Origin: an uncultured virus (IMG/VR IMGVR_UViG_2690315925_000005)
Taxonomy: Duplodnaviria; Heunggongvirae; Uroviricota; Caudoviricetes
DNA length: 64,000 nucleotides
IMG/VR virus record: IMGVR_UViG_2690315925_000005
Strand: one strand, 5' to 3'
In this document: piece after piece, positions 8,201-60,768 of the stretch
Layout of the letters: every line of letters starts with the position of its first letter
How positions within the stretch are numbered: position 1 is the first letter of the stretch
Notes under the pieces: model-generated
What the model saw: the letters and a program-made list of their open reading frames with translations, nothing else
What the model was told of the DNA's origin: nothing
Databases searched by the model: none
Translations under genes and position numbers: made by a program

Positions 8201-11200
8201 ATCGGCCAGCACCTGGCCGCCGGTGCGCTCTGCCTCAGCGCGCGCGGCGCCAAGGGTCAGGAAGTCGGCCGGTCGGCCGCGCTCGTCGGCGAGATACCAC
8301 TGATCATCGCGGCGGAGAAATCGACCGCCGTTCTGCTCGAGGAAGGCTTCGCCGCGGGCATCGATCTGCGGCTGCGCGAACGAGTAGGACCGGACCATTT
8401 CCCGCTGGGCCTGCGCTGACATGCCGGCGCGCAGGAAACCGTCGGCCTGGCTCAACAGGTCCCGAACCTCGGTCTCGGACCACTTGAGCGAGGGCATCAC
8501 GCGGCGCAGGAAGCGGCGCACCGCTGAAGCGACACGGCTGGTGAAGCTGTTCCTGATCCCCCGCTCGGCCATGACGGCGATCGCTTCCTTGGCGAAGGTC
8601 TCACGATCGACAGTGCCGTAGCGCCTGGTCACATCAGCCAGCACCGACTTCAATGCAGCGGTACCGGTTCCGTCAGCGGCGAGCTTGTCGATCGCGTCAA
8701 CGATCTGGGTCCAATCCTTGGCCCCCACCACGGACTCAACGCCGTAGTGCCCGATTGCCTCGTGGGCCAGCACCTGAGCAAAGCGCTGCTCGGTGGCGAT
8801 GTTGCCGGCGTTGATCCAGACGGTGGGCCGCCCGTCGTACACACCTTCGGCCCGGCGATAGCCCGGATCGACCTTGGCGCTGGCTGGGAAGTCCTCGGCC
8901 GAGCGCACAACGACCACGCTGGGCGCGTTCTCGCCCCAGTGCTGGGTCAGGTCGGCTTTGAGCTGCAGCGCGCGGTCAAAGTCCAGGCCGCTGCCGGCAG
9001 CGGGTGCAGCGGGTGCAGCGGATCGATTTACCCGCCCGGCGGGCCCAGGTGCTTCAGCTCCGGATCCTTCGCCAGCTGCTCCTTCGCCCACTGGCCGGAG
9101 GCCCGATACTCGGCCTTCAGCGACTCGATCTCGGAGGGCGTCAGCATCGACACGTCCCTTGTCGAGGGTGAGGATGGTGCGGGCTTCGGACTCGGTGAGG
9201 CCTTCGAAGCCGTAGCCGAACTGGTCGCGCCACCAGGGTTCGATTGATCCGAAACGTTCACGGACGTCGGCCAGGCTCTGGGAGTTGAGGGCGATTTTCC
9301 GCGAATAGTCCTTGCCGGTCAAAGCGGTGGCCAGCACAACCTTCCCGCCGTTGTCCTCGATGTGGGTTTTCAGCTGGGCCAGCGTGCCGCCCTGGGTCAG
9401 GGTGTCATCGATCAGGACATAGTCGCGGCCCTTCTCCACCTTGCCGGTGAACGGGGGCTGGTTGGCCAGCCGGTGCAGGGCGTCGCCGGCACTACGGTTG
9501 ACCTTCGCGGCCTGGACGATGTCTTCGGACACCTGCAGTCCCAGCCGCTGGGCCAGCACTTCGGCAGCCATCCGCGGAATCCGGTTGTTGCCCGTGGCTT
9601 CCTGGGACTGCACGGCCACCACCAGGGGCTTGCTGCCCTCCGGCAGCACAGCACGCACGTCCTCGACGAACTCCGGTGTGACGACGTCGCGCGCCACACG
9701 CAGCGCCGCCGCATCGTCGCCGGCCTTGGCTGCATCGTAGTCTGCATGCGCGCTCAGGCGCCCCGGACGATGTGCCGTGACAACGTCCGGGAAGTTGGCC
9801 TCCCACCCTCGCCGCGAGAAGAGAGGATCGGACGATCCCGCCGCGCTGTCCGCTGCTGCGGAGTCACCGCCCTGCCGGCCGGCCTCACCCGGCACAGACT
9901 TCGAAGTCTCAGAGTTCGATGCCGGTTTCGCCTTGGCGTCCCTCTTCACCACTGCCGCCTTGGCCGTCTTGGCGTCCCTTCTCGCCTTACGCTCAGGCTT
10001 CCCAAGCACGGAATCCAGATCGCGCGGAGCCGGGACAGTGCTATGCCAGCGTGGCACCTCATCCGGAAGAGCATTCCCTTCCTTGTCCACCATCTGCACC
10101 TTCACCTGCCAGCGCGGATCCTTCCCGGGCGGCCGGAACTCGATCACCCGATCCCGAGTGTTGCCATACGCGTTCACGATTCTTCCCGGCCGGAAGTAGG
10201 CACCAAGCGTGCCGATGTCATCCCGAACGTACTCGGGGGAGCCTGCCTTGATGCGGACCTTGGGCGTGTAGACCGGGCCGGGTTCATCTGCGGCTGGTGC
10301 TGCAGCAGCTGCAGGTTCACTTCCGCCCGTGGCCGGAACACTACCGGTTTCCGTCGGCACACCTGCGCTTTCGACAGGAGCGCTGACGCTCTGCCCCGTT
10401 TCACCTGCGTTCGGAACTGCCTGCGGCGCTGGCACTGCCTCCGCCGGCTTGCTCCTGGTGACGCGGCGAGTGGTCTTCTTCGGGTCGCGGACCCAAGACT
10501 TGAACTGCTCCTGCGACATTTCCTTGATGCCGCCGAGGCCGGTCCAGCCCTTCGAATAGTTGGCCAGGTAGGTGTCCCGCGCTTCCTGCTCCGAGGCGGT
10601 ACCCATGATCACCTTGTGCTCGTCGAAGGATCCATCCTTGTTCACCTGGTCCACCACGTATACCGGCAGGGCCGGATCCTCAGCGCGGTCGGTCATGAAT
10701 ACGTCGACGTGGTCCTTGTCCTTGCCGACCGTGCCCTTGAAGTAGCCGTAGTGGTTCTTCAGCGCCGGCCAGCGAGGATCCCGCTGGCTACCTGCAGGGT
10801 TCTCGATGCTGATGTCGTGGCCGTTGATGCGGACATGGCCTTTCTTATAGTTACCAGCTTGCTTCTGCGCATCCGACGGGAGCGGCAGATCATTCACAGG
10901 GTTGGTCGCGGCTTCTGCTGCCGCGGTGGCCACCTTCGGCGCATCCGCGGGCACGGCGGCGCTGTCCTGAGCAGGCGTCGCCTCGGCAAGGGGCTGCGCC
11001 GGAGCAGTCTCGGCCAGGCTGGGTGCCTCCGTCGTGCCAACGGCGCCCGGCTCCGAAACCGGTTCGCCAGACACACCGGTGCCCGATTGCAGCGGTGCAT
11101 CATTCGGTGCGAGCTGCAGGCCGCTGGCCAGCGGCGCCGACGCAGAGCGATCGGCAGGCGCTGCATCATCAAGCTGCAGGTCCGCAACCGGTGCCGCTTC

Positions 11201-13171
11201 CCTCAGCGGGTGCTGCGCCGGCGATGCCGGGCCTGCGGCCTCACTCCCAACCGAGCCGTCGGCATCCGTGGGCGGCTCGGTGAGGCCGCGTCGGCGCTCG
11301 CCCTTGACCTCGTCCAGCAGCGGGCGCACGCGGGCGCTGGGCAGGCCGTACTGGTCACGCATGGTGCGCAGCAGAGTCGGCGTGTTGATGCCTCCATGCG
11401 CCTCCACCTGGTACTGCAGACCGTTGTGCAGCAGTTGCTTGATGTCCGTCGAAGTCGGCTCGCGCAGGGCTTCGCCGGTCTGTGCATCGACCCACGGTGG
11501 CGCGGCTGGGGGCGGCAGCGGCGGTGCCGACGCCGCCGGCACTTCGGGAGTAGCCAGGCCTGCCTGGTCGCCCTGGACTTGCGGAGGCACGGGCTCGGCG
11601 ATTGCCGCGGCAGCCGGTGCGATGGCAGTAGGTTCGTTGAGCCGCCGAGCCTGGGACACCAGGTTGGCGATACCTGCGATCGAGCTGGGCGCGGCGTCGG
11701 GGAAAGGCACTGTCGGCTGCGGGCGGGCAGCAACCCGGCGCCCATCGAAGGGCGCGGACATGCCGCGGCCCTGCGGGAACCGCATTTCGGGTTCAGCCAT
11801 CACCTCCGGCCGGACACCACCGCGCGTGATGGTCCCATCCGGCGCCGCGGTCATCACTTCGGGCGGCGGGAGCGCGAGCATCTGTGGGATCGGGGGCGGC
11901 GGCAGCGATGGCGGCGTGGGAGCCGGCCTACGTGCCAAGCGCTCGCGCTCTGCATCGGCCTGCACAGCGGCCTGATTGTCGCCACGACTCGCGATGGCAC
12001 CGCCGGCGGCCATTCCGCCGCCCAGCAAGCCGCCGATCGCCGCGCCGGTACCCGCGGCCTCGGGCACGCCCTCCCATGCCGCCTGGGTCGGGTCGACCTG
12101 CCGCTGACCGAGATTGCCGGCCAACTGCGACCCGCCTTCCTGGAGGCCTTCTTCGACAGTCTCGCGCGCGGCACCGGCCAGCATCGCCTTCGGCTTGCGT
12201 GCCAGACCGCGGGTGAAGACGTCAGCCTCGAACGGCGCCGCGATGCGGCCGGCAATCGCAGCGATTGGTGCCGTAATGGCTTGCGCTTCCATCGACGCGC
12301 CACGCGCGATCGTTTCCTTCACTGTTTGCGGGTCGCCGCCGGCGGCAACCATGCGCTTGTACTCCGGATTCGCGTCCCACACCGATTGCGGCTGTGCCAT
12401 TGCCTGCTGGTACGTCTGCTGGCCTGCCGAACCGGTCTCCATCACCGTCGTCATGCCAGTGGCAGCGGCGGTCGCTGCCCGGTGTCCAGCGGCAGTCGCA
12501 GCCATTTCCGCGGCCTCGGTACCGAGGCCCTTGGCCAGCGCCCCGGCCATGGCCCGCTCGCCTGCCTGAGCCGCTGCAGCGCGCGTGCCAGCGCCCATCG
12601 TGGCGATGTTGGGCACCTGCTCGGCAAGGAAGTTTCCGATCAGCCGCGGCGAGGACAGCACCTTGCCAGCGCTGGCGAAGAAGCCCTTGGTGTCCTGCAG
12701 CTCCTGCTTTTCCTGCTTGAGCGCGTCCGACTGGCTCTCCCCGAGGTAGTCGGTTGCCATCTGCGTCGCCTTGGAGAGGCCAGCGCTGTCGGACCCAGCA
12801 CGACGTCCACCCAAGATTTCCGACGGCGTACCCGGCACCAGAGCGGCCGTCTCCGACGCCCCCTTTACGCCCAAGCGATCCAAGCCGCGCAGGCCCTGCC
12901 GCACCAGGTTCGTCGGCTCCAGAGAGTTTCGTTGCTCGATGGCGCCACCAATGATGTTCGCAGCGCCGGTGGCGATGCCGAGACCGGTGTCCTTGATGGC
13001 CTCGCCCCAGGTACGTTCAGGGCGCTTGGCCACCTTCTGGAAAGGGTCTCCCTGGACAGGTGAAAGCGTCGGACGGCGCGCGATCTTATTGGTGCCTGCC
13101 GGTGCTGGTGCCTGAGTCGGCGCCTGGCCTGCGCCGAAAGGATTCCCATCGACCTTCTCGAACGTTGCCAT
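5246..13171 (-). CDS. Giant polyvalent internal virion protein (InPase-like, PRTase, zincin HExxH and PLxRFG domains)
   Basis: 2641 aa; ISIENPAGSQR..HYGYFKGTVGKDKDHVDVF; VLIDDTLTQGGTL; LAHEAIGH; YFPLQRFG. Confidence 0.88.
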   Translation of the reverse strand: MATFEKVDGNPFGAGQAPTQAPAPAGTNKIARRPTLSPVQGDPFQKVAKRPERTWGEAIKDTGLGIATGAANIIGGAIEQRNSLEPTNLVRQGLRGLDRLGVKGASETAALVPGTPSEILGGRRAGSDSAGLSKATQMATDYLGESQSDALKQEKQELQDTKGFFASAGKVLSSPRLIGNFLAEQVPNIATMGAGTRAAAAQAGERAMAGALAKGLGTEAAEMAATAAGHRAATAAATGMTTVMETGSAGQQTYQQAMAQPQSVWDANPEYKRMVAAGGDPQTVKETIARGASMEAQAITAPIAAIAGRIAAPFEADVFTRGLARKPKAMLAGAARETVEEGLQEGGSQLAGNLGQRQVDPTQAAWEGVPEAAGTGAAIGGLLGGGMAAGGAIASRGDNQAAVQADAERERLARRPAPTPPSLPPPPIPQMLALPPPEVMTAAPDGTITRGGVRPEVMAEPEMRFPQGRGMSAPFDGRRVAARPQPTVPFPDAAPSSIAGIANLVSQARRLNEPTAIAPAAAAIAEPVPPQVQGDQAGLATPEVPAASAPPLPPPAAPPWVDAQTGEALREPTSTDIKQLLHNGLQYQVEAHGGINTPTLLRTMRDQYGLPSARVRPLLDEVKGERRRGLTEPPTDADGSVGSEAAGPASPAQHPLREAAPVADLQLDDAAPADRSASAPLASGLQLAPNDAPLQSGTGVSGEPVSEPGAVGTTEAPSLAETAPAQPLAEATPAQDSAAVPADAPKVATAAAEAATNPVNDLPLPSDAQKQAGNYKKGHVRINGHDISIENPAGSQRDPRWPALKNHYGYFKGTVGKDKDHVDVFMTDRAEDPALPVYVVDQVNKDGSFDEHKVIMGTASEQEARDTYLANYSKGWTGLGGIKEMSQEQFKSWVRDPKKTTRRVTRSKPAEAVPAPQAVPNAGETGQSVSAPVESAGVPTETGSVPATGGSEPAAAAAPAADEPGPVYTPKVRIKAGSPEYVRDDIGTLGAYFRPGRIVNAYGNTRDRVIEFRPPGKDPRWQVKVQMVDKEGNALPDEVPRWHSTVPAPRDLDSVLGKPERKARRDAKTAKAAVVKRDAKAKPASNSETSKSVPGEAGRQGGDSAAADSAAGSSDPLFSRRGWEANFPDVVTAHRPGRLSAHADYDAAKAGDDAAALRVARDVVTPEFVEDVRAVLPEGSKPLVVAVQSQEATGNNRIPRMAAEVLAQRLGLQVSEDIVQAAKVNRSAGDALHRLANQPPFTGKVEKGRDYVLIDDTLTQGGTLAQLKTHIEDNGGKVVLATALTGKDYSRKIALNSQSLADVRERFGSIEPWWRDQFGYGFEGLTESEARTILTLDKGRVDADALRDRVAEGRVSGLRPVGEGAAGEGSGAEAPGPAGRVNRSAAPAAPAAGSGLDFDRALQLKADLTQHWGENAPSVVVVRSAEDFPASAKVDPGYRRAEGVYDGRPTVWINAGNIATEQRFAQVLAHEAIGHYGVESVVGAKDWTQIVDAIDKLAADGTGTAALKSVLADVTRRYGTVDRETFAKEAIAVMAERGIRNSFTSRVASAVRRFLRRVMPSLKWSETEVRDLLSQADGFLRAGMSAQAQREMVRSYSFAQPQIDARGEAFLEQNGGRFLRRDDQWYLADERGRPADFLTLGAARAEAERTGGQVLADPVERGPRTWSVVLPNGAEVTRAARGRLFSMPPADALADIDAIQQGVEGEEVLARARQNLEGLSPSKVKDTLRPTWLGALATRHLTELGRDYFPTIDRYSDYLAEMQADRNKLQAEADTIAEAARQWASKNKAESRRLFDLMHQATMDGVDPSREYQALQFRMPGEKGLQEVNRKNVLHAIKVKQQQMRERSGDTKTNIMNEVKALKAMLKAEPRRRRQYAPLVEQWSQLSPEAKSFYLQFRDAYRARSEAVEEALVQRIEDLKGSDLVGGQVLSDSSRRMLVIKIREQFESARLQGVYFPLQRFGKFFVAAEKDGTNTFLMFESLNELDRAVKDLERREWAITARGQKMEGKATDAPSGTFVADVIDQLRTSHVSDAVQDQVYQLYLQTMPELSMRKHQIHRKSVPGFDPDAVRAFAYNMQHGSHQLARLRYAHKLQGVLIDLKEAQKEIQASPSVDTRKIVAGDALLEELGKRHEWIMNPTDSALTNLISSFGFTYYLGATPAAALVNVTQTALVSYPYLAARHGGVKAMNYLLAASRDAVRTVGNIQKTLTDPDELRAYQALEVAGAIEKTQAHNLAGIAEGGMTGYNPAWSKAMEIIGWGFHKTEVINREATGMAAYRLARADGKSFDEAVKFARDAIFDTHFDYSNANRARFMQSGTAKVLLMFRQYSLNMTWALGRMVWQATKGQDPQVRQVARRNLTGLLGMSALFSGAMGLPMMGMIMGALNGIQATFGDDDEPWDAETELRAFLTGMLGQSGADLLLHGPADKLTGANISGRVGLDSLWIRDADRELDGRGMFNNLLEQAAGPMGGVLKNVLVGKQQVDEGHIMRGVETMLPKGLKDMIKAGRYATQGVNTLRGDPVVADLSPWEILLQANGFAPEKVSRQYETTRALKNYEQHILDRRKSLVNAFAMALRNGDASDRASVLSKIGAFNKANPELAITSSGLQQSIKNRARYSARAEAGVILNPKLAARLNKAVTE

Positions 13172-39132: not shown

Positions 39133-39209
39133 TGGTAGCGGGAGGTGGATTCGAACCACCGACCTCGTGGTTATGAGCCACGCGAGCTGCCGGACTGCTC
39201 TACCCCGCA
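39133..39209 (-). tRNA. tRNA-Met(CAT), initiator-like
   Basis: 77-nt cloverleaf TGCGGGG..GAGC..GCTC..CGTGG-CTCATAA-CCACG..GGTGG-TTCGAAT-CCACC..TCCCGCT-A-CCA. Confidence 0.92.
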
Positions 39210-39413: not shown

Positions 39414-39845
39414 TCAGTCTCCGAAGTCCGGCGTGTAGGCGTACGAAGGCTGTTGATAGAGCCAGCTGGCGTCGAACGTGAATCCTTCTTCTTTGCCCTG
39501 ATTGATTGGGTACATCGTGTCATGGACAGCTGCGAGCAGCGCATCAAGGATCGTGTTCGCTCCGTCATTACCAGGGTATGGATGCTGCATGTTAGGTGCC
39601 TTGGCATGGACGCTACGAGCCATGCGGTACCTATTTGTAGAGATCTTTGAGGGCCAGATTTTCACGCGCAGATCAAACTGCGCCCCGCCACCAGCATTCA
39701 GCCTCAGAACGTATTCCCAGGCCACACGACCCTTGGTGATTCCAGCCTTCGAATCGAGATCTGTTTCGATGAAGCTCGCAGCGGCTCGAAGCGCCTCTTC
39801 GGCCGTCACAATGTTCCCGCTCAAGTCAAAAAACTGTCCCGTCAC
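39414..39845 (-). CDS. Accessory hypothetical protein
   Basis: AAGGAG SD, GTG start, lower GC. Confidence 0.7.
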   Translation of the reverse strand: MTGQFFDLSGNIVTAEEALRAAASFIETDLDSKAGITKGRVAWEYVLRLNAGGGAQFDLRVKIWPSKISTNRYRMARSVHAKAPNMQHPYPGNDGANTILDALLAAVHDTMYPINQGKEEGFTFDASWLYQQPSYAYTPDFGD

Positions 39846-39928
39846 TGCTGCTCCTTTTCCCGGCCGAGATGGCCCTAACAAACCTTAACAAATGTGATAA
39901 TCCCGGCCAATACAGGGAGGGTGTTGCA

Positions 39929-40501
39929 ATGGTTGAGACCGTACTAGGCTTGACAGATCTACAGATCAAGTTGGTCACTGCAGCGGGGCAGCTGGCGCTG
40001 GCCGCGATGGTTGCGTATGTGGCATGGCAGCAGTGGCGCACGGCGCGCAACAAGCTCAAGGCAGACCTCTTTGATCGTCGTTTGGCTCTGATGAAATCAC
40101 TGCAGGCATGCGCCGACAAAACGTATCTCGACAATCTCACCGATGCAGAGCTGGCGGCACTACCAGGGCTGGCGAAAGAGGCTGGGTATCTTTTCGGGAA
40201 GCCGGTGCGTACCGCTGCCTATGGGCTAAGTGAGGCGCTGCATGCGCGACACCGAAGCAAAGTGGCAATCGTCGAGGCCAGGGCTCTGCTCCGCACTCAG
40301 TGGGACGCTCTCGGTTTCATGTCAGCATTGCCACATGATCGGATAAGCAATGAGGTCGAGCTCCTTGAGACGCGAATTGCTGAGACAGAGTCTAGGATCA
40401 AGGCACACGAGAATGAACTGATCACCACCACAGGCGCGCTTTCGGGGTTGCTAATCACGCTGCAGATTGCGGCCTCTGATGCGCTTACGTTGAAGCATTA
40501 A
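39929..40501 (+). CDS. Membrane-anchored moron protein
   Basis: TM then AWQQWRTARNKLKADLFDRR; GGAGG SD; extended -10 TGTGATAAT at 39893. Confidence 0.8.
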   Translation: MVETVLGLTDLQIKLVTAAGQLALAAMVAYVAWQQWRTARNKLKADLFDRRLALMKSLQACADKTYLDNLTDAELAALPGLAKEAGYLFGKPVRTAAYGLSEALHARHRSKVAIVEARALLRTQWDALGFMSALPHDRISNEVELLETRIAETESRIKAHENELITTTGALSGLLITLQIAASDALTLKH

Positions 40502-40504
40502 CTG

Positions 40505-41479
40505 CTAGGGATGCCGGCCAGCTGCATCGCACTCTTCCGCGCGGTCACGCAAGGGCTGACCGAACCACAGCGCCTTCCGAAACCCCTTCCTGCCACCGTG
40601 AAGCGCTTCATGCAGGACTGCACTGGCACACTTGTGCGCCTTGATGTAGTTGCCCTTGCGCATCTTCGCGGACTTGGCCAAGCCGGCGAACGGCTGCCGC
40701 CGTTCTGGCCAAACCAGTTCATGGGCTGCGTCATAGATCACCAGGCGAAGGCGCCACCGATCGGCCGGCTTTCCGAGATCCAGCGGCCGCGGGCGCATTG
40801 CGCGCACGTCCTTGGCCACCTGCCGGTAGGCAGCAAGGGATAGCCTAGCGATCGCCGCTGGGCCCATGCGCGTCGCCACCGCGAGGGCGGTGTGCTTCTC
40901 GAGTGGGTTGCGCATGTAGCCGACCGCGCCGGCGATGTCGCTGCTCCCCAGCGGCGCCAATGTGCTGCGCCCCTCAACTGGCATGCGGTAGCTCCCGCCG
41001 ACCAGCAGTCGCGACAGCAGCTCCAGGACGTCGCCCTTGCCCTCGTCGTCGAATCCATCCGGAGCTGCGCCCCGGCGCCGCTTGCCTGCACTGTCGTCGC
41101 CCGCCGTAGCAAGCACCGGCGCACGTCGACACCAGGCATCCAGCGCCGCGGCAAGAGCGCCGGCGGGATCCGGACCAACGAACACGGCTGAGGATGCCCC
41201 GCAGCTGCAGCACTGGATCTGTGCGCCCCTCGGGAACAGACCAGTCGGGGCGGTACCACAGCGGCCACACTGGACCGGCGCGCTGATGTCGAAGATGGCT
41301 CCACGTGGCCCGCAGTGCCGGCACTGGAGCTGTACCAGCTGCGACTCGCGGCCAGGCCAGCACACCCTCGCCTTGCCGTTGCAGTTGGCGCAGGAGGGGA
41401 TCTTCTTCCCCTTGAGGAAAGCCACCTCGAGGTCGCGCGCGGCTGCGAGCGCGTTGGTACCGACTGCAGTTTCGTTCAT
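40505..41479 (-). CDS. Putative late-gene regulator (four CxxC motifs plus Q-like C-terminal domain)
   Basis: Last gene of the cro operon before the late promoter region; DIAGAVG motif and C-terminal HTH-like segment. Confidence 0.55.
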   Translation of the reverse strand: MNETAVGTNALAAARDLEVAFLKGKKIPSCANCNGKARVCWPGRESQLVQLQCRHCGPRGAIFDISAPVQCGRCGTAPTGLFPRGAQIQCCSCGASSAVFVGPDPAGALAAALDAWCRRAPVLATAGDDSAGKRRRGAAPDGFDDEGKGDVLELLSRLLVGGSYRMPVEGRSTLAPLGSSDIAGAVGYMRNPLEKHTALAVATRMGPAAIARLSLAAYRQVAKDVRAMRPRPLDLGKPADRWRLRLVIYDAAHELVWPERRQPFAGLAKSAKMRKGNYIKAHKCASAVLHEALHGGRKGFRKALWFGQPLRDRAEECDAAGRHP

Positions 41480-42303
41480 GACGTCTGTTCCTGGGTCTTC
41501 TTTGCTGCCGCTGCAGCGCGCGCGGCGCGCGCCTGGGCCAGTACCTGAGCGTAGGCCTCGGGGTGCTGGTCCTCGAAAGCCGGGAGTCTCCCGCGCGCCC
41601 ACATCCCCTCGCCCAGTTGCCTCAGCCACCCATCGGAAGCACAGAAGCGGCGCGGATCCACGCCATGGGCCCGGACACCCTTCGCCGTCGTGAAACCATC
41701 GAGCTCGAGATCGGCCAACACCTTGAGAGCGCCCACCTTCCAGGGAGTCAACTGCAGCGGCGCCGGCACGCCCGCGGCAACTTTCGGCACAAACTCAGGC
41801 AATTCACAGCGCTTGGTTGGGTTCCAGTCGAACCATGCTGTAGGTCCCCACTCGCGGAGATCGCCGGATGCGCGATCCCATGGGGCGGCCTGATGCAGGC
41901 CATGCCGATGCACCTCGCGCTGAACCTGCTGCCCAGGCTCCGTCTTCCAACGGGCAGTACAGCTGTCCGGGACCAGAACCTGCACGCCCAGCGCATCGAG
42001 CATCCGTGCAATGCCGTAGTTCGCCGCTGTCGTGCACGGAACCAGCACCGCCCTGAAGTCTGGCCCCCGCTGGTCGCCGTTGCTCCAGTGCGCCGGCAGG
42101 ATCTGATCGGCCACTTTGGCGTTGAGCTGCAGCTTCGCCTCGATGCCGAGCTGATGCCCAGTCGCCTTCCACACAGCCAGAATGTCGAAGCCGGCTGTCT
42201 CGGGGTAGATCTCCCAGCCGCCGGCCTCGGTCAGACAGTCGATCAGGCACGTGCACAGGGCAGCCTCCGTCGGGAACCGCGCCTTGAGCTCTGCAGGCTT
42301 CAT
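41476..42303 (-). CDS. PD-(D/E)xK-like hypothetical protein
   Basis: YPETAGFDILAV..GIEAKL. Confidence 0.6.
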   Translation of the reverse strand: MKPAELKARFPTEAALCTCLIDCLTEAGGWEIYPETAGFDILAVWKATGHQLGIEAKLQLNAKVADQILPAHWSNGDQRGPDFRAVLVPCTTAANYGIARMLDALGVQVLVPDSCTARWKTEPGQQVQREVHRHGLHQAAPWDRASGDLREWGPTAWFDWNPTKRCELPEFVPKVAAGVPAPLQLTPWKVGALKVLADLELDGFTTAKGVRAHGVDPRRFCASDGWLRQLGEGMWARGRLPAFEDQHPEAYAQVLAQARAARAAAAAKKTQEQTS

Positions 42304-45815: not shown

Positions 45816-46136
45816 ATGGATGCAATTGCGGAACTGGAACTGCGGCAGCTGCTGGCGGGCTGCCAGGCTCAAATCAAGGCGTTGCACGAGCAACTGGAAA
45901 TCACCGCCGGCAGTGCACTGGCGACAAACGTCGCCCTGCATGGGCTCATTTCGGTCCTTCCAGATCTCGACCTCGCAGGAAGAGCGCTCGCAACCGTGCG
46001 ACGAGACTTCGAAGGCGCATCGGACCCCGCGACCGCTGAGCGGGCGATGTCGTTCGAGGCGACTTTTGACAACCTGCAGAAGACCATCGAGAACCGGAAG
46101 GCCGTGCTGGCGCGTCAGGCTCAATCTCTCCGCTGA
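45816..46136 (+). CDS. Antisense cassette gene A1 (106 aa, helical)
   Basis: Motif CCTCCGGCTGGCAGAAT at 45760, CCAACCAC leader, GGAGA SD. Confidence 0.75.
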   Translation: MDAIAELELRQLLAGCQAQIKALHEQLEITAGSALATNVALHGLISVLPDLDLAGRALATVRRDFEGASDPATAERAMSFEATFDNLQKTIENRKAVLARQAQSLR

Positions 46137-46296: not shown

Positions 46297-46638
46297 ATGA
46301 CCCCATCCGAACTCGAAGCCCGATTCGCCCAATACGACGAACGAATCGCCGCGTTGGAGGCTGAAAAACAGGCGAACAGCTGGTTCACGCTGGCCGTCAT
46401 TGGCAGTCATCCCGACACAGAGATGCTGCTGGAGGTAGTTCGCGCCGCCATCCAAACACTGCGCGGCAAAACCTCGCCCGAAGCCCCGGCCGGCGTGGCC
46501 GCTGCAACCGTGCTTCGCCTGTTGGAGATCGAGCGTCAGATCCTGAAGGCGCAGCAGAGCCGACAGGAGCTGGCGGAAGCGGCGGAGGCGGAGCGGCTGT
46601 TGGAACAGCAACGCGCTGGATCTGAGCAGGAACACTAG
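46297..46638 (+). CDS. Antisense cassette gene A2 (113 aa, helical)
   Basis: Motif TCGGCTGGCAGAAT at 46254; protein-like composition; weak SD. Confidence 0.7.
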   Translation: MTPSELEARFAQYDERIAALEAEKQANSWFTLAVIGSHPDTEMLLEVVRAAIQTLRGKTSPEAPAGVAAATVLRLLEIERQILKAQQSRQELAEAAEAERLLEQQRAGSEQEH

Positions 46639-46843: not shown

Positions 46844-47197
46844 ATGGAAGCGAGCACTCGCTTGGACACCCTCGAGAGGGCCGTTATCGCGCTGCAGACC
46901 CAGAACTCGCAGATCGTTGCTTCTTTGACGGACGTCACCGAAGCCATCAACATCGCGTTCAAGGACCTGTACCTGAGCGAGCAGAAGAAGGACGGCATGT
47001 GGGCTGCCCAGCGCGCCATCATCGAGTCCCTCCTGGCGCACGCCGACGCAGCCACGCGTCAATATGCGCAAGCAAAGCTGCAAGTCGCATACGAGGTGTG
47101 GGACGCGAAGAACCGGGATCCCGAATTCCTTGAAGAGTTTGCGGCGGCCGCGCGTTCAGTATTTCCTGACATTCGGCTAGAGCCCGCCGCTGAGTAA
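46844..47197 (+). CDS. Antisense cassette gene A3 (117 aa, helical)
   Basis: Motif CTCCGGGCAGGCT at 46792, CCAACCAC twice, GGAGA SD. Confidence 0.75.
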   Translation: MEASTRLDTLERAVIALQTQNSQIVASLTDVTEAINIAFKDLYLSEQKKDGMWAAQRAIIESLLAHADAATRQYAQAKLQVAYEVWDAKNRDPEFLEEFAAAARSVFPDIRLEPAAE

Positions 47198-47489: not shown

Positions 47490-47867
47490 ATGGCATTGCC
47501 AGCTGACGTCCGCATAGACCAGCTGCACGAACTGCTGGGGGAACAGGAAAAGCAGCGCGAAGCGCTGAACATTCGAATCCACGACCTAGAGCGGATCCAA
47601 GCCGACCACGCAAAAGTCATCGAGCGACTGGTGTGGCTTTTGGATGGCGCGCGTGGAAAGACTGCGGTAATGGAAACCGTCATCCCTCTTCTCCTGGAAT
47701 CAAGCGATCAACGGACCCGGGATCGCGTACAGACGGCGCTGGAGCTGCGCTGGCGCCAGGACCGAGCTCTGGGCGCAGGTGCGACTCCCCGCTATGAGGC
47801 GAAGTTCGAGAAAGCAGCTCTCGAAGTTGCCCCGCAAGCATCGCTTCCCCGACAGCACAGTCGCTGA
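47490..47867 (+). CDS. Antisense cassette gene A4 (125 aa, helical)
   Basis: Motif CCTCCGGCTGGTAGGCT at 47434, CCAACCAC leader, GGAGA SD. Confidence 0.75.
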   Translation: MALPADVRIDQLHELLGEQEKQREALNIRIHDLERIQADHAKVIERLVWLLDGARGKTAVMETVIPLLLESSDQRTRDRVQTALELRWRQDRALGAGATPRYEAKFEKAALEVAPQASLPRQHSR

Positions 47868-55184: not shown

Positions 55185-55393
55185 CCTCGAACCATCTGCG
55201 AACGGTACCCCTGACCAAGAAGTCCCAGGTATCGGACGTGCTACACGCCGGCGGCCGCATCGTCGCTGGCCACCGGCCTGGCCTGCTGCAGTTGCTCGAC
55301 GCCGAGGGCCGCCCAGTCCCTGCCTGGCAAACCGCCCTGAAGGCCGCTCAGCTCTCGGCCGCACCCTCCGGAGATCCGCATGAACCGCAGTGA
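55181..55393 (+). CDS. Phage hypothetical protein
   Basis: ATGA-coupled. Confidence 0.55.
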   Translation: MTSNHLRTVPLTKKSQVSDVLHAGGRIVAGHRPGLLQLLDAEGRPVPAWQTALKAAQLSAAPSGDPHEPQ

Positions 55394-56120
55394 CGTCCTC
55401 CCCCGTTTCCTCGCCGATACGGCCACCCACGAGCTACGGATCGTGGTCGACGACGGCGTGCACCGCCACCTGCAGTTCCGTCGCCCCGGAACCTACTGCT
55501 ACGGTTTCGACATCGTGACCTGGCCCGGGCACCTGGCGATCTCCGGCGACATGGGCACTGCCGTTTTCAGCCGCCTGCACGACATGTTCGAGTTCTTCCG
55601 TGCCAAGCCCGCCGAGCACGAAAAGGCCGGCGGCCTGTTCGTGAACGATGGCTACTGGGCAGAGAAGTGCGTGGCCAACGACGGCGAGAAGAAGGAATTC
55701 AGCGCGGCACTCTTCCGCGCGCTGGTGACCCGCCTGTTCAAAGAGCACGTTGAGGAACGTGTGGACCCCGACGATCTGGCGGATCCGGACACGTCGACGC
55801 CGGAGTGGGTGGCCAGGTTGTGGCAGGAGCTCGAGGTCGAAGTGCTGAACGACTCGGAGGATCACGACGCCCTGTGCAACGCGATCAAGGCGATGTCGGA
55901 CTTCGCGCCGAGCGACCCCGACTACAGCGACTTTCGCATCACTGACGCCTGGGAATACGCATCCTCGCTGCAGCAGTACACCTTCCACTTCCTCTGGCGC
56001 CTGTACGCGATCGCCCGCGCGATCCGCGCCTACGACGATGCCGCCGACACTGCCGAGCCGTCAGGACTGCCAGCCGACATCGCCATACCTATCCAACTGA
56101 CCGAGGTCACCAATGCGTGA
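55380..56120 (+). CDS. Phage hypothetical protein
   Basis: FDIVTWPGHLAISGDMG..FSRLHDMFEFFR; GGAG SD. Confidence 0.8.
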   Translation: MNRSDVLPRFLADTATHELRIVVDDGVHRHLQFRRPGTYCYGFDIVTWPGHLAISGDMGTAVFSRLHDMFEFFRAKPAEHEKAGGLFVNDGYWAEKCVANDGEKKEFSAALFRALVTRLFKEHVEERVDPDDLADPDTSTPEWVARLWQELEVEVLNDSEDHDALCNAIKAMSDFAPSDPDYSDFRITDAWEYASSLQQYTFHFLWRLYAIARAIRAYDDAADTAEPSGLPADIAIPIQLTEVTNA

Positions 56121-56166
56121 GGACCGCAACGACCTCAATACTGGCTTAATCGCCAACAACGCGCAC

Positions 56167-56955
56167 CTATGGGCGCTCTCCCCTCCCCGCGCGGAGATCG
56201 AACTTGGAGAAATCGTAGGGTTCTGCCCCAGAGAACGCTCGAACGTTTGCAGCTGTTTCCATGCAATAGGCAGAGAAAACTTCGACGTACTCCTTGAGAC
56301 TTCTTACCTGCTCCATCGAGCCTGCAAACACCCTTATCTCTGCAGGGAAGTGATTAGTGCGAGTGTGCGTCTTCACCTGCGAAAGCAACGTCTTGCAGTT
56401 TGCGCTCAATGTGCGGCCGTACCCAATCAACACTGCGAGATCATTCCCAATGTTCTCTGGCAAGTAGTGAAGTCTATCTTCCGATTTCTCGGTACCAGGC
56501 AGAAGCGATTGCTCCCCCAACCGGAATGTGCGCTCCAAGAAACCGACCTCCTCTTCGGTTGTTGGAGCACCTCGATTCAGAGCCCTGATGCAGTGCTGAT
56601 GCAGGATATACAGCTGCGTCGGCAATTCCGAGACCTCGTGTACCAGCACTCGAGCGACGATCCGAGCGTTGCCGTCCCTCGCCCCAACGATTTCCAGGTG
56701 CTGCTGCTTGGCGATTCTTGTCGCCTCGGCAGCAATCGACGTCGCTTTGCGAGACGTCCGATAGGCAAGGACTGCAACGACTGTTGTGGCCAACACCGCA
56801 AAGACACCAACCCAAACCGATGCCCAGGCCGCGACCATGGATAGCAAAGCCATCAGGACACCTGCCCAATCGGCCAAGTTGCCTAGATCAGCAGCCACCA
56901 AACATGTGCTCACCCGCATCCCCTTTCTGCGCTTAGACCTGAGTGATTCTCCCAT
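56167..56955 (-). CDS. Antisense membrane-anchored moron protein (start may be 56919)
   Basis: Lower GC; long TM segment then helical domain; opposite to operon direction. Confidence 0.7.
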   Translation of the reverse strand: MGESLRSKRRKGMRVSTCLVAADLGNLADWAGVLMALLSMVAAWASVWVGVFAVLATTVVAVLAYRTSRKATSIAAEATRIAKQQHLEIVGARDGNARIVARVLVHEVSELPTQLYILHQHCIRALNRGAPTTEEEVGFLERTFRLGEQSLLPGTEKSEDRLHYLPENIGNDLAVLIGYGRTLSANCKTLLSQVKTHTRTNHFPAEIRVFAGSMEQVRSLKEYVEVFSAYCMETAANVRAFSGAEPYDFSKFDLRAGRGERP

Positions 56956-56999
56956 GACTTCGCTCGAGAGCTCCACAGCTTGGCTACCAGAGATCCCTC

Positions 57000-57278
57000 G
57001 TGAGTAACTACGACGCCCCCGCACGAGGATTGCCGAGGCCCGGATCCCCCGCGAACCTGCGCCCGGTCCGGTTCGTCACGCTCAAACAGTTCGAGACGCT
57101 GACCGGCTACACGGTCGACGCGGTCAACTCGAAGATCAAGCGTGGCGATTGGCTGGAGGGCGCCGTCTTCATCAAGGCGCCAGATGGAAGAAACCTGATC
57201 GACCTGGAGGGGTACGAAGAGTGGGTAATGCACGGCAAGGCGGCGTCAGGCCAGCTACACAGAGCAGCATCGCAATAG
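57000..57278 (+). CDS. xis: Excisionase
   Basis: FETLTGYTVDAVNSKIKRGDWLEG..KAPDGRNLIDLEGYEEW; overlaps int start. Confidence 0.85.
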   Translation: MSNYDAPARGLPRPGSPANLRPVRFVTLKQFETLTGYTVDAVNSKIKRGDWLEGAVFIKAPDGRNLIDLEGYEEWVMHGKAASGQLHRAASQ

Positions 57279-58396
57279 ACTTCTACTATAGGGGCAAGCG
57301 TTGCCGTGAGCGGATCAAGCTCGCCCCGACCGCTCGGAATCTGCGCTACTGCGAAAATCTGCTGGGGCAGATCAAGGTCGAGATCGAGAAAGGCACCTTC
57401 GACTATGCCACCCACTTCCCCGGCAGCAAGCGCGCGGTGCAGGTGGCAGAGAAGCCAGCGGCCCTCGACACCCTGGAGCAGGTGCTGACTCGGTGGCTGG
57501 CACAGAAGGAGCCTGAGCTCGAGCACAGCAGCCTGATTGGCTACCGGCGCATCGTCGAGAACATCCTGGTGCCGCGCTGCGGAGCGATTGCGTTGCGTGA
57601 CTTCAACCGTATCGCCCTGAAGGAGCTGGTGGCCACATTCGACGAGTCGACGTCGGCCAAGCGCATCAACAACGTTCTGGGCCCGCTCCGCGGCGCCCTC
57701 GATGAGGCCGTAGCCGACGACTTGATCCCCAGCAATCCCCTCGACGGGTTCCGGGTGAAGCGGCGCGCCAAGGCCAACGCGCGCGAGGAGGTCGACCCCT
57801 TCACGCCGGAGGAAGTCCAGGCGATCCTGGCCGCCTGTCGCGAGGACCAGGTCCGCAATTACTGCCAGTTCAACTTTGCCACGGGCCTGCGCACCTCGGA
57901 AATGATCGGTCTCTGCTGGTCGGACATCGATTGGCGCAAGGGCACAGTCAAGATCCGGCGCGCCTGGGTCATGGGCAAGATGAAGGCCCCCAAGACCGAG
58001 TCCGGCGTGCGCGAAGTGCAGCTGCTGCAGCCGGCGATCGACGCCCTGAAGGCTCAGCGGGCCCACACCGCCACCGCCGGCGAGTTCGTCTTCCACGATC
58101 CCAGGACGAATGCCCGATGGGGGTCCGACCAAAGCATCCGCGCTGGCGAATGGCAGCGCGCGCTGCGCAAGGCCGGGGTGAGGTACCGGTACCCGTATCA
58201 GATGCGCCACACCTTCGCCTCACAAGCGCTCAGCGCTGGCGAGAACGTCATGTGGGTGGCCCGGCAGATGGGGCATCGGGACTGGACGATCACAGCGAAA
58301 AAGTACGGCCGTTGGATCCCGTCGATGGTCCCCGATGCGGGCGCGAAGGCCGCGGCTGTCTGGAAGCCCGAGCTTATGCATTCGGGCATCAAGTAG
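57221..58396 (+). CDS. int: Tyrosine integrase with arm-binding domain
   Basis: SIAIDFYYRGKRCRE; TGLRTSE, PKT, YQMRHT, QMGH, KKYG. Confidence 0.93.
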   Translation: MGNARQGGVRPATQSSIAIDFYYRGKRCRERIKLAPTARNLRYCENLLGQIKVEIEKGTFDYATHFPGSKRAVQVAEKPAALDTLEQVLTRWLAQKEPELEHSSLIGYRRIVENILVPRCGAIALRDFNRIALKELVATFDESTSAKRINNVLGPLRGALDEAVADDLIPSNPLDGFRVKRRAKANAREEVDPFTPEEVQAILAACREDQVRNYCQFNFATGLRTSEMIGLCWSDIDWRKGTVKIRRAWVMGKMKAPKTESGVREVQLLQPAIDALKAQRAHTATAGEFVFHDPRTNARWGSDQSIRAGEWQRALRKAGVRYRYPYQMRHTFASQALSAGENVMWVARQMGHRDWTITAKKYGRWIPSMVPDAGAKAAAVWKPELMHSGIK

Positions 58397-58456: not shown

Positions 58457-58702
58457 TCAATGCCTTCGCACTAGATCCGTGATCTCAAACTCGTGAATGG
58501 AACCGTAGCGCTCCCAGATCTTCACCACCATGTCTGGAAACACCGGGTTCGTGATCAGCAGCACCTCAGGATCGCCATCAGCATCGACCAGTTCGTACCA
58601 GTCGTTTCCTTGCGCAATCACCTCAACCCCGTGCGTTCTCAACACATTTAACACATGTGTCCTGGGTTGAGCGCCGTCCCATGGCCCTTTACGAATCCTC
58701 AT
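58457..58702 (-). CDS. HicA-like small protein
   Basis: VLNVLRTHGVEVIAQG pattern; coupled to HicB-like gene; lacks the usual GSH motif. Confidence 0.45.
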   Translation of the reverse strand: MRIRKGPWDGAQPRTHVLNVLRTHGVEVIAQGNDWYELVDADGDPEVLLITNPVFPDMVVKIWERYGSIHEFEITDLVRRH

Positions 58703-59106
58703 GCAGCGTGAGCCACCTCAGCCTCGCGGAAAGCGAGTGATGTAAAGAATCCAGTGTCCTGAGGGATGTCAAGCTCAACAACAGTCCCGCAGGTCAGCAC
58801 ATCGTGGTTGTCACTTTGAAGCCAAAGGTTCCACGCCTCTGGCGGCGTTTTGCCCTTCGCAAAGAGAGCCGTCAGCGGCCTATTACGCCTCAAGTAGGCT
58901 TCGATGGTTCGAAGAAGGCCATCGGCAAAGTTCTGACGAACTTCGTCGACAGTGCGGCCTGTACTCAAGTAGTCGATCTCCAAGCCCTGAGCAACGTACC
59001 CACCGTCCTCAGACGGGAGGATGAGCACGCGTAGCGAGGCGTCGACTGCATGTCGGCCATCCTCAGACTTTCGATGACGTAGCACGGGGAAATTGTCTCT
59101 CTTCAT
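58699..59106 (-). CDS. HicB-like protein
   Basis: VLILPSEDGGYVAQGLEID..TGRTVDEVRQNFADGL. Confidence 0.6.
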   Translation of the reverse strand: MKRDNFPVLRHRKSEDGRHAVDASLRVLILPSEDGGYVAQGLEIDYLSTGRTVDEVRQNFADGLLRTIEAYLRRNRPLTALFAKGKTPPEAWNLWLQSDNHDVLTCGTVVELDIPQDTGFFTSLAFREAEVAHAA

Positions 59107-59504
59107 ATGCGTAACCTCGTCTCACTATCCTTAGTCTTCGAGACAAAAAAGGGCCGATCACTTTGACCGGCCGCCAGATCAGTTCGGCCACCACAGCCTC
59201 TGGATCTGGGGAAATCTTAGTCTCCCGGAGGCCGCTAGCACAAGTGCACAAGCGCTTCAACGTACAACTCTGTGGAAAACATTCAGAAAGGCTGAAATCT
59301 GTTAGTAAGTTCAACAACCCCTTATTTTTCAAATACATATTTATGAACAAAATTCCCATTCGGACGCGCATGCCTGAACGCAAGCCGCGTATTCACTTTG
59401 AATTAACTAGTGACGCTCGTCACACATTCGGAGTTTGGTGCAAAGTGTGTTCGCGCTAGCACTTCGGTGACCCTCCAGCGAAGCGCACTGATCGACCGCT
59501 TCGG

Positions 59505-59697
59505 CATCTGTATTAGATGCGCCACACCTTCGCCTCCCAGGCGCTTATCGCGGGCGAGAACGCTATGCGGGTGACGTGGGAGGGGCATAGGGACGGGACG
59601 ACGGGCGCCCCAAAGTACGGCCGCTGGCCCCCATCGACGATCCCTGGTGCCGGCGCCCAGGCCGCTGCAGTGTGGGTGCCGAAGTCTGCCATCTAGT
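59505..59697 (+). pseudogene. Degenerate copy of integrase 3' end
   Basis: 22-bp identity AGATGCGCCACACCTTCGCCTC with 58200-58221; similarity continues ~190 bp with a CAG>TAG stop and indels. Confidence 0.85.
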
Positions 59698-59702
59698 GGG
59701 CT

Positions 59703-60305
59703 ATGCTGAAGTGCCTGAACGACTGGAGCATGGGAATGGACGACGATCAGACAGGCACAGGGACCGAACCTGCCGCGCGCCCGCCGGTGGCGGCCGACGA
59801 TTTGCTGTTCATCCGCACTCCTGAAGAGTTCACCTCCGCCTTTTTGGCCGGTTGGATCGTGGACGCTCGCAGTGGGGGCTTGGTCCGTGGACGGCTCCAC
59901 GAGGAAGGCCATATCTCCATGATTCAGCACGCTGAGCCACTGGGCACTTTTGAATTCATGGGGGTGATGGAAGGGGGGGAGTACATCCTTAGCACCGACG
60001 CGACCGCTGCGCATTTTGATCGTTTGATGGAGATCAACAGCGACAAGACGCCTTGTGACACTCCTCTGCCCGAAGCTCCCCCAGGTCGGGTGATCGATGT
60101 GTCAGCCGAGCCCCACGACAAGATGCTCATGATTGATCGGCAATTCATCATCAATCGCGTCTCCACCCGGAGGCACCTAGCCGAACTGGTCGCGCTGAAT
60201 GATCCGCATAGCTACTACCGCGGCCAGTTCTTTGATGACAACGTGGTCGCCTATCTGAACGACCATCCTGAGCTAGGCGACGGTCCGCCGACCAGTGGCG
60301 GCTGA
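59703..60305 (+). CDS. Accessory hypothetical protein
   Basis: ~190-200 aa ORF, GGLVRGRLHEEG..MEGGEYILS; start uncertain. Confidence 0.65.
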   Translation: MLKCLNDWSMGMDDDQTGTGTEPAARPPVAADDLLFIRTPEEFTSAFLAGWIVDARSGGLVRGRLHEEGHISMIQHAEPLGTFEFMGVMEGGEYILSTDATAAHFDRLMEINSDKTPCDTPLPEAPPGRVIDVSAEPHDKMLMIDRQFIINRVSTRRHLAELVALNDPHSYYRGQFFDDNVVAYLNDHPELGDGPPTSGG

Positions 60306-60407: not shown

Positions 60408-60426
60408 AGAAACCGGGGGTGCATTG
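60408..60426 (+). repeat. attR core
   Basis: Exact match to 1415-1433. Confidence 0.9.
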
Positions 60427-60768
60427 GTTTCGACGGGGGTTGTGAAGTCGCCTGGCGCATGCCGAGGGGGTAGCTTTCCTCGTAAATCCAGCTGCAAAAC
60501 TCTAGTTGCCAACGACGACAACTACGCTCTGGCCGCTTAAGGCCTAAGCCTCGAAACCGCTTGTGTCCATGCTCGCGGTGTAGAGTCACTATCATGGAAT
60601 CGCGCTGGGTGGCTGCCTGTCAGTCCGGCACTAGAACACAACAGGCTGGTTCCCGGATGCGCTTTGCACGCCGTGCTGTTCGGGGACGAGATCCAACGGT
60701 GAGCTAAGCATGTAGTGCTGGGGATGGAGTGCCTTCGGACGGCGGTTCAATTCCGCCCACCTCCACCA
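60415..60768 (+). ncRNA. ssrA: tmRNA
   Basis: 5' GGGGGTG..GGTTTCGAC; tag ANDDNYALAA* at 60508-60540; 3' T-arm GGCGGTTCAATTCCGCC then CACCTCCACCA. Confidence 0.97.

Follow-up and report, generated by a model that had tools for sequence, protein, structure and literature searches.

Introduction

Noncontiguous operons, in which a real gene lies antisense between co-oriented genes of the same operon, are known from S. aureus (menE-menC-MW1733-ytkD) and from the cI operon of phage 80alpha with tha-1/ith-1, and in phages they tie accessory or defence genes to the lysis-lysogeny switch, as set out in the available parts of PMC7154746 and PMC11087260. In those parts of the same two papers the nested antisense gene has its own promoter, and the stretch facing it is described as untranslated. 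The locus that we describe here, in a window of 64,000 nt (the whole stretch of phage DNA analysed), has the same layout with a real antisense gene between co-oriented operon genes and a promoter that is putative, but the facing stretch is bridged by open reading frames (ORFs). In the available descriptions the tha/ith operon is lysogenic and its antisense gene an inhibitor, whereas in the present case a lytic operon carries the antisense gene as cargo.

The sieB gene of P22 is likewise nested antisense in a pL operon, an operon that lambda-like phages read through by means of N antitermination. The P22 sieB/sas/esc system places a superinfection-exclusion gene under antisense RNA control (PMC12197685, available part); that control consists of RNA pairing and the Esc protein, whereas a translated filler frame would act here, and the likeness noted is one of layout. 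Long ORFs antisense to a real gene are likewise represented by olg1/olg2 of P. aeruginosa and by gene 10 over olg1 in phage Fc02, and stop-codon avoidance is expected of antisense overlapping genes, according to the accessible portions of PMC8850804 and PMC9936078. In those cases protein-level selection has been argued or the protein is active, whereas here selection appears to act on the open frame and its end points. The comparison with known systems also cites a preprint (10.1101/2020.02.20.958058), again from the part available.

As far as the accessible passages of the following sources go, common spacings of coupled genes are -8, -4 and -1 (PMC6728339), coupling falls off by about 20 nt and reinitiation needs overlaps or very short gaps (PMC10666635, PMC6728339), and Rho loads on untranslated RNA, causing polarity (PMC12548453). 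Coupling and polarity are treated in these passages as acting between functional genes; a filler ORF drawn from the antisense strand does not appear in them, and the word 'antisense' occurs 0 times in that of PMC12548453. A literature search, thin on subscription journals and older phage genetics, found no description of coupled filler ORFs over antisense phage genes.

The definition of a moron reportedly stems from work on HK97 and HK022. The gene studied here resembles phage morons as a lower-GC accessory gene between conserved phage genes with an apparent promoter and SD of its own, and differs from them in that it is reversed, has replaced resident genes, has no convincing terminator and has codons that are constrained by the opposite strand.

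An antisense accessory gene in the early-left operon

The window carries a Stenotrophomonas-type temperate phage of ~58 kb with portal, major head, DarB-like, O-like, CII-like, repressor, rdgC, xis and int genes; annotation places relatives of the antisense gene in Stenotrophomonas and Xanthomonas. On the plus strand, the early-left operon runs from 50372 to xis as a continuous chain of overlapping or closely spaced ORFs with 1-, 4- and 8-nt joints, which suggests that the genes flanking the insert may be co-transcribed. The features of the interrupted stretch are:

55380..56120, plus strand: gene A, a conserved early-left phage gene (phrog_4657; relatives at 85-100%), the upstream relay partner
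56103..56107, plus strand: SD-like GAGGT before bridge ORF 1, in the diverged tail of gene A (duplex -6.6 kcal/mol)
56113..56844, plus strand: bridge ORF 1, 243 codons in the in-register antisense frame of the insert, no family match
56167..56913, minus strand: antisense accessory gene (moron), 248 aa, N-terminal hydrophobic anchor plus helical bundle, GC3 0.62
56837..57007, plus strand: bridge ORF 2, 56 codons in another frame, weak SD (-2.5)
56919..56926, minus strand: SD of the antisense gene, -7.1 kcal/mol for GTG 56913
56946..56954, minus strand: putative extended -10 element of the antisense gene, TGGGAGAAT, proposed from conservation only
57000..57278, plus strand: xis (PHROG excisionase), GTG start, weak SD (-2.9 kcal/mol)
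57221..58396, plus strand: tyrosine integrase gene (int), probable start at GTG 57221, own SD (-9.8) inside xis

Elsewhere in the window a tmRNA at 60415-60768 (plus strand), 2 kb past int, is a likely attachment site, and a phage-borne tRNA-Met(CAT) lies at 39133-39209 (minus strand). Low-GC genes past int (58457-59106, minus; 59403-59696 and 59703-60305, plus) have no family match; within this region ~59517-59696 is a degenerate copy of the integrase C-terminus, and L017/L047 carry a similar second int fragment. A 2641-aa virion protein with a DarB-like antirestriction match is encoded at 5246-13171 (minus strand).

That the minus gene is real follows from its 24 homologues, the conserved N-terminal hydrophobic segment and a confident helical model (pLDDT 79.8). 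The preliminary description had correctly recognised the gene and had let it begin near 56955; that start was rejected in favour of GTG 56913, which is supported by the family alignment and by its SD (-7.1 against -2.2 kcal/mol). With a GC of 0.56 versus about 0.65, and present among the gene A and int loci on the window-like contig only, the gene is an accessory gene of lower GC that is absent from this site in close relatives, that is, a moron. We suspect a role in exclusion or defence. Pfam, PHROG, NCBIfam and PADLOC gave nothing significant for its protein, Foldseek gave no match at E<=0.001, and its Atlas matches are hypothetical throughout; for 18 other antisense cargo proteins the same databases gave no function beyond three weak PADLOC rows. 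A single-protein search of GTDB contigs with the moron found nothing, and the named phage records searched contained no close relative.

An extended -10-like motif stands 15-32 nt upstream of the antisense start in 14/24 inserts and, by its conservation, suggests that the cargo gene carries its own promoter; a consensus scan found no promoter. No terminator-like site was found at the 3' end of the gene, and 2 such sites occur elsewhere against 1.2 expected. Contigs from RNA libraries (two runs of one study), which carry neither strand nor level and cannot reveal a single transcript, are deepest over the insert, at 17.7 and 14.5 versus 0-12 in neighbouring bins. In the raw RNA reads X21 and X24 the prophage is absent, with only a host rdgC-like stretch present. 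A search of Rfam gave no match, and RNA folds at the junctions were nothing unusual (z between -0.95 and 0.77).

A conserved 14-nt motif (56945-56958 in the window; also in L121, L123-L127, L130, L131 and L134-L149) joins the putative -10 box to the next forward ATG, so that on opposite strands it would serve as promoter of the antisense gene and start codon of the next forward gene. Many of the cargo proteins form a loose superfamily with a common N-terminal C..W...DW.AW membrane anchor and unrelated helical C-terminal parts (L023, L024, L047, L051, L052, L060, L103, L126, L127, L150, L151, L153); its members are candidates for exclusion or defence.

Two bridge ORFs and three overlaps

Two forward ORFs and three 8-nt overlaps had been reported between gene A and xis, and all are present in the sequence, in the order 55380-56120 / ATGCGTGA / 56113-56844 / ATGGATAG / 56837-57007 / GTGAGTAA / xis 57000-57278. 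Translationally coupled (TeRe) pairs have spacings of -8 to about +10 nt, and both the three -8 overlaps here and the joints in 24/24 inserts lie in that range. The duplex of the SD-like element before bridge ORF 1 equals those of rdgC and gene A; the weak SDs of bridge ORF 2 and xis are compatible with downstream translation that depends on upstream translation. In the one relative whose xis was scored (L046), the gene starts with ATG and has a stronger SD than the GTG-started xis of the window (-7.1 versus -2.9 kcal/mol).

The first three codons of bridge ORF 1 are the relic start of an MRERPILF gene (phrog_874), and the final ~55 nt of bridge ORF 2, which overlaps the minus gene in its first 77 nt only, resemble the decayed end of the HTH gene that relatives have ahead of xis. 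Both bridges had been called Cys/Arg/Ser-rich; bridge ORF 1 is indeed rich in Cys and Arg (C 6.2%, R 11.1%), whereas bridge ORF 2 is Cys-less and Ser/Pro-rich. In the frame of bridge ORF 1, a stop requires a TTA, CTA or TCA codon of the minus gene, which has just two of them, both CTA (codons 10 and 24); codon 24 ends bridge ORF 1, and bridge ORF 2, in another frame, bypasses both.

Inherited junctions and chance at a single locus

The outer overlaps have a history of their own. A start codon overlaps the gene A stop by 8 nt in 18/24 other gene A loci, in 9 of which it opens an intact MRERPILF-type gene, and 23/29 other int loci have an ORF, in most cases a small HTH gene, that ends on xis by ATGAGTAR; many rows of these two sets represent the same prophages. 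Read from its flanks, the insert evidently replaced the DNA from the first three codons of one phage gene to the tail of another. The outer two overlaps are thus ancestral junctions of the replaced genes and therefore not evidence alone, and we rejected the overlaps themselves as evidence of design. What is to be explained is the read-through of foreign DNA between the relic junctions.

Where DNA is GC-rich, the in-register antisense frame is the likeliest to be open by chance, and in the window GC-rich phage genes are shadowed by antisense frames of 1233, 751 and 611 codons. A shadow of 243 codons over this lower-GC gene is nevertheless less expected, as had been proposed: GC3-matched controls predict 4.7 stops over codons 25-248, with P(0)=0.009. 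Null sequences of this locus contain a coupled path of at most two hops in 0.2-0.3% of cases and any path in 3-5%.

Related inserts keep an open, coupled path

Homologous and unrelated inserts in relatives keep the forward frame open and coupled, which is where the relay idea of the preliminary description gains its support, although the outer overlaps are ancestral and not a new design. Five unrelated or distantly related antisense inserts occupy the same site in other loci, each under a coupled forward ORF or a two-step relay, with these bridges:

L046: 301 codons over two genes
L047/L055: 292 codons
L052: 242 codons
L051: 24 + 264 codons
L060: 300 codons

Homologues of the window gene at 30-68% identity are likewise bridged (L120, L121, L123, L124, L125-L127, L130, L131, L133), in some cases by a bridge that crosses two consecutive genes, and an automated scan for low-GC3 genes and for minus genes upstream of xis added nine loci, all bridged (L068, L103, L106, L023, L024, L089, L091, L092, L102). 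Single ORFs cross two unrelated genes and their spacers in L046 and L143. Very long single forward ORFs of about 470-560 codons over at least two antisense genes were observed at L133:1788-3260, where the ORF extends past the locus end, L143:1453-2853 and L134:1396-3090. Most bridged inserts land on other early genes, so the relay is not specific to xis/int.

Thirty antisense genes of related early operons contain 4 stop-making codons (TTA/CTA/TCA) in 5817 codons against 111.5 expected. Among the 53 control genes, taken from the window and the fetched loci, those of similar GC3 have 1.5-2.7 such codons per 100, and 1/53 has none. The depletion in the thirty genes holds for TCA (0/176 TCN codons, versus 228/1309 for GCA/CCA/ACA) and for CTA (4/484, versus 52/463 for GTA). 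Two of the four remaining codons are those bypassed in the window, one lies outside the bridge (L124) and one in the decayed locus L129, which is in the codon pool and not in the path test and has its one stop in a decayed flank.

Resampling of synonymous codons predicts a coupled path in 2.5 of the 24 inserts, and 24/24 have one. When flanks and phase were also randomised, 20/20 had a path against 1.1 expected, four inserts being skipped because the gene overlaps the flank. Relatedness matters for these counts, since 23/32 cargo proteins belong to one loose cluster or superfamily; with the worst-case insert taken per cluster, six unrelated clusters give a joint P of 1.4e-5. Bridges end -8 to +6 nt from the next start, or run into it in frame, in 24/24 inserts, and 20/24 downstream genes have an SD of their own of -5 kcal/mol or better. 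Backward chains from xis reach the locus start in 16/30 distinct loci. Minus ORFs in L076, L081, L099, L105, L107 and L094-L096 were left out of the test set, being judged shadows of real plus genes or outside an intact early-left operon; among these, two L076 ORFs and one L099 gene have no path, and L081 and L105 have no clean bridge.

A later set of 20 loci, from 22 matches in 147 genomes, was reduced to 17 by removing two repeats of earlier loci and one of L123. Its 15 genes that lie antisense in phage early operons hold 4 stop-making codons against 77.7 expected, and 12/15 are fully coupled. The others are L147 (1483-2220; three stops, the chain ending about 105 nt short), L149 (1357-2127; frame open, no start at the junction) and L151 (a start with a 16-nt overlap). 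Four homologues outside such operons (L128, L132, L140, L146) have 17 stop-making codons against 20.7 expected, in a comparison for which context was assigned by eye from neighbouring genes and, in the later set, with the stop counts in view. Since L149 and L129 have truncated neighbours, they may be decaying prophages.

Conservation of the bridge proteins and the antisense genes

Judged by pairwise identity and at four-fold sites, the bridge proteins have diverged more than the antisense genes, a comparison that the preliminary description had called for. The bridge has the lower identity in 10/11 pairs (0.47 v 0.68 between the window and L120, 0.37 v 0.74 between L131 and L133, and also 0.21-0.28 v 0.34-0.49), and in the remaining pair, which is near-identical, the two values are the same. 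Four-fold sites differ at 44-77% in nine diverged pairs, third positions of the antisense-gene codons change most in the 11 pairs, and close homologues of bridge ORF 1 stop at 235, 243 or 257 codons. The frame is open across diverged homologues, as in antisense overlapping genes, whereas identities, four-fold sites and variable ends give no sign of the purifying selection on the antisense protein sequence that such genes would show. The apparent target of selection is the absence of stops and the end points, not the amino acids.

A chain in the other early operon

The preliminary description spoke of the same design in the other early operon, and a layout of this kind exists there: on the minus strand, from 47683 to 45210, seven ATG-started ORFs cross four plus genes and end in a CII-like gene, with 4-nt and 1-nt overlaps and one 4-nt gap at their joints and in frames that are mostly out-of-register. 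This all-ATG coupled chain over four antisense genes, read from layout alone, is probably the other relay that was meant. The genes beneath it have no known family:

about 45819-46136, 46297-46638, 46844-47197 and 47490-47867, plus strand: four genes antisense to the chain

The gene at 39869-40501 was rejected as the first relay, having 8 stop-making codons and no chain. This low-GC membrane-anchored gene lies antisense at the end of the early-right operon (39869-40501, plus strand; 39414-39881, minus strand) and directly follows a putative late-control gene (40505-41629), which is Q-like by position only and has no PHROG match; the unbridged state is consistent with there being no coupled phage gene downstream. 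Homologues of the 39869-40501 gene are co-oriented in L120 and antisense in L099.

Discussion

We propose a model in which the operon mRNA is kept occupied by ribosomes through selection, as a guard against Rho polarity and to allow reinitiation downstream, and in which inserts are bridged by filler ORFs, and we consider this reading probable. A membrane-anchored cargo gene with its own promoter would have replaced phage DNA in reverse orientation, a position that sets the cargo against the lytic transcript and would allow its expression in the lysogen. By established mechanisms, a C-rich stretch of ~880 nt left untranslated would lay the lytic transcript open to Rho and would break termination-reinitiation at xis, so that only inserts with a stop-free chain coupled at both ends would be retained. 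TTA, CTA and TCA would be purged from the antisense gene wherever the in-register frame is used, a step that the codon counts support. Translation itself would be the function, with the drifting bridge proteins presumably dispensable by-products. In the window, the two CTA codons near the insert start would be avoided via handover to the second frame ending on xis, with ribosomes entering at 56113, handing over at 56837 and reinitiating at xis.

Rho protection and coupling probably both act. The SDs of 20/24 downstream genes point to transcript protection, and the exact landing on the next start points to coupling, on which the xis of the window, with its GTG and weak SD, should depend more than most. 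As int has its own strong SD inside xis, only transcription, and not coupling, could tie it to the relay. Other parts of the operon are also rich in C on the forward strand, so composition gives no particular pointer to Rho, and the weak SD of bridge ORF 2 counts against the relay. With an antiterminator, transcription might not need the bridge; PHROG scans found none, which is weak evidence.

The bridges might instead be true overlapping genes with active proteins, either lytic-phase inhibitors of the antisense membrane protein or exclusion proteins. Ith against Tha, Esc against SieB and gene 10 over olg1 in phage Fc02 are precedents, the SD of bridge ORF 1 is good, its product would appear exactly when the moron must be silenced, and gene callers list it on 66 contigs, with three homologous frames. 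We nevertheless hold this to be improbable, as bridge identity falls below gene identity with four-fold sites near saturation, bridge ends shift among relatives, no family matches, and a bridge may cross unrelated genes with their spacers as a single ORF or be broken up into two or three. Selection on bridge translation could also serve control at the RNA level rather than Rho polarity or coupling, by blocking pairing with the moron mRNA and RNase III cutting or by helping elongation to override the convergent moron promoter. RNase III and polymerase collision do regulate noncontiguous operons, the depth of the RNA contigs over the insert is compatible with moron expression, and downstream genes with their own SD (20/24) do not obviously need coupling. 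Yet landing at -8 to +6 nt in 24/24 inserts is the range of termination-reinitiation, an exactness for which coverage alone has no need, and the contigs give neither strand nor level; we find this account unlikely.

Chance would combine an in-register shadow, open since GC-rich genes rarely use TTA/CTA/TCA, with inherited overlaps. The ancestral outer overlaps fit it, as do the xis-side stop within xis codons 2-3, the long shadows common in the window and the occurrence of any path in 3-5% of nulls at this locus. It becomes very improbable once loci are pooled (4 v 111.5 and 4 v 77.7 stop-making codons, paths in 24/24), and controls of the same family outside operons retain their stops.

If filler ORFs do relay ribosomes across such inserts in many temperate phages, they would make up a widespread class of ORFs that matter for being translated rather than for what they encode, and they would constrain the codons of the cargo. 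The signature of TTA/CTA/TCA loss with coupled ends would mark the strand of the real gene, unannotated defence candidates and prophages probably still under selection. It bears on whether long prokaryotic antisense ORFs function, as they could be kept by selection without a useful protein being necessary. The relay lends itself to an unusually clean test, as a bridge stop can be introduced through a single synonymous substitution in the antisense gene, and the incompletely relayed loci L147, L149 and L129 are useful natural controls.

The finding would provide a rule by which phage operons accept reversed cargo while keeping downstream expression. A broader claim, to which we give equal measures of belief and doubt, is that a ribosome relay stands in for N-type antitermination in many temperate phages of Xanthomonadaceae (and beyond), which admit reverse cargo only with a coupled filler ORF. 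On this broader view, reverse cargo genes would probably be defence or exclusion genes expressed in the lysogen, xis and the lytic switch would depend on a protein-less 'gene', and the handover point could let the moron mRNA tune excision.
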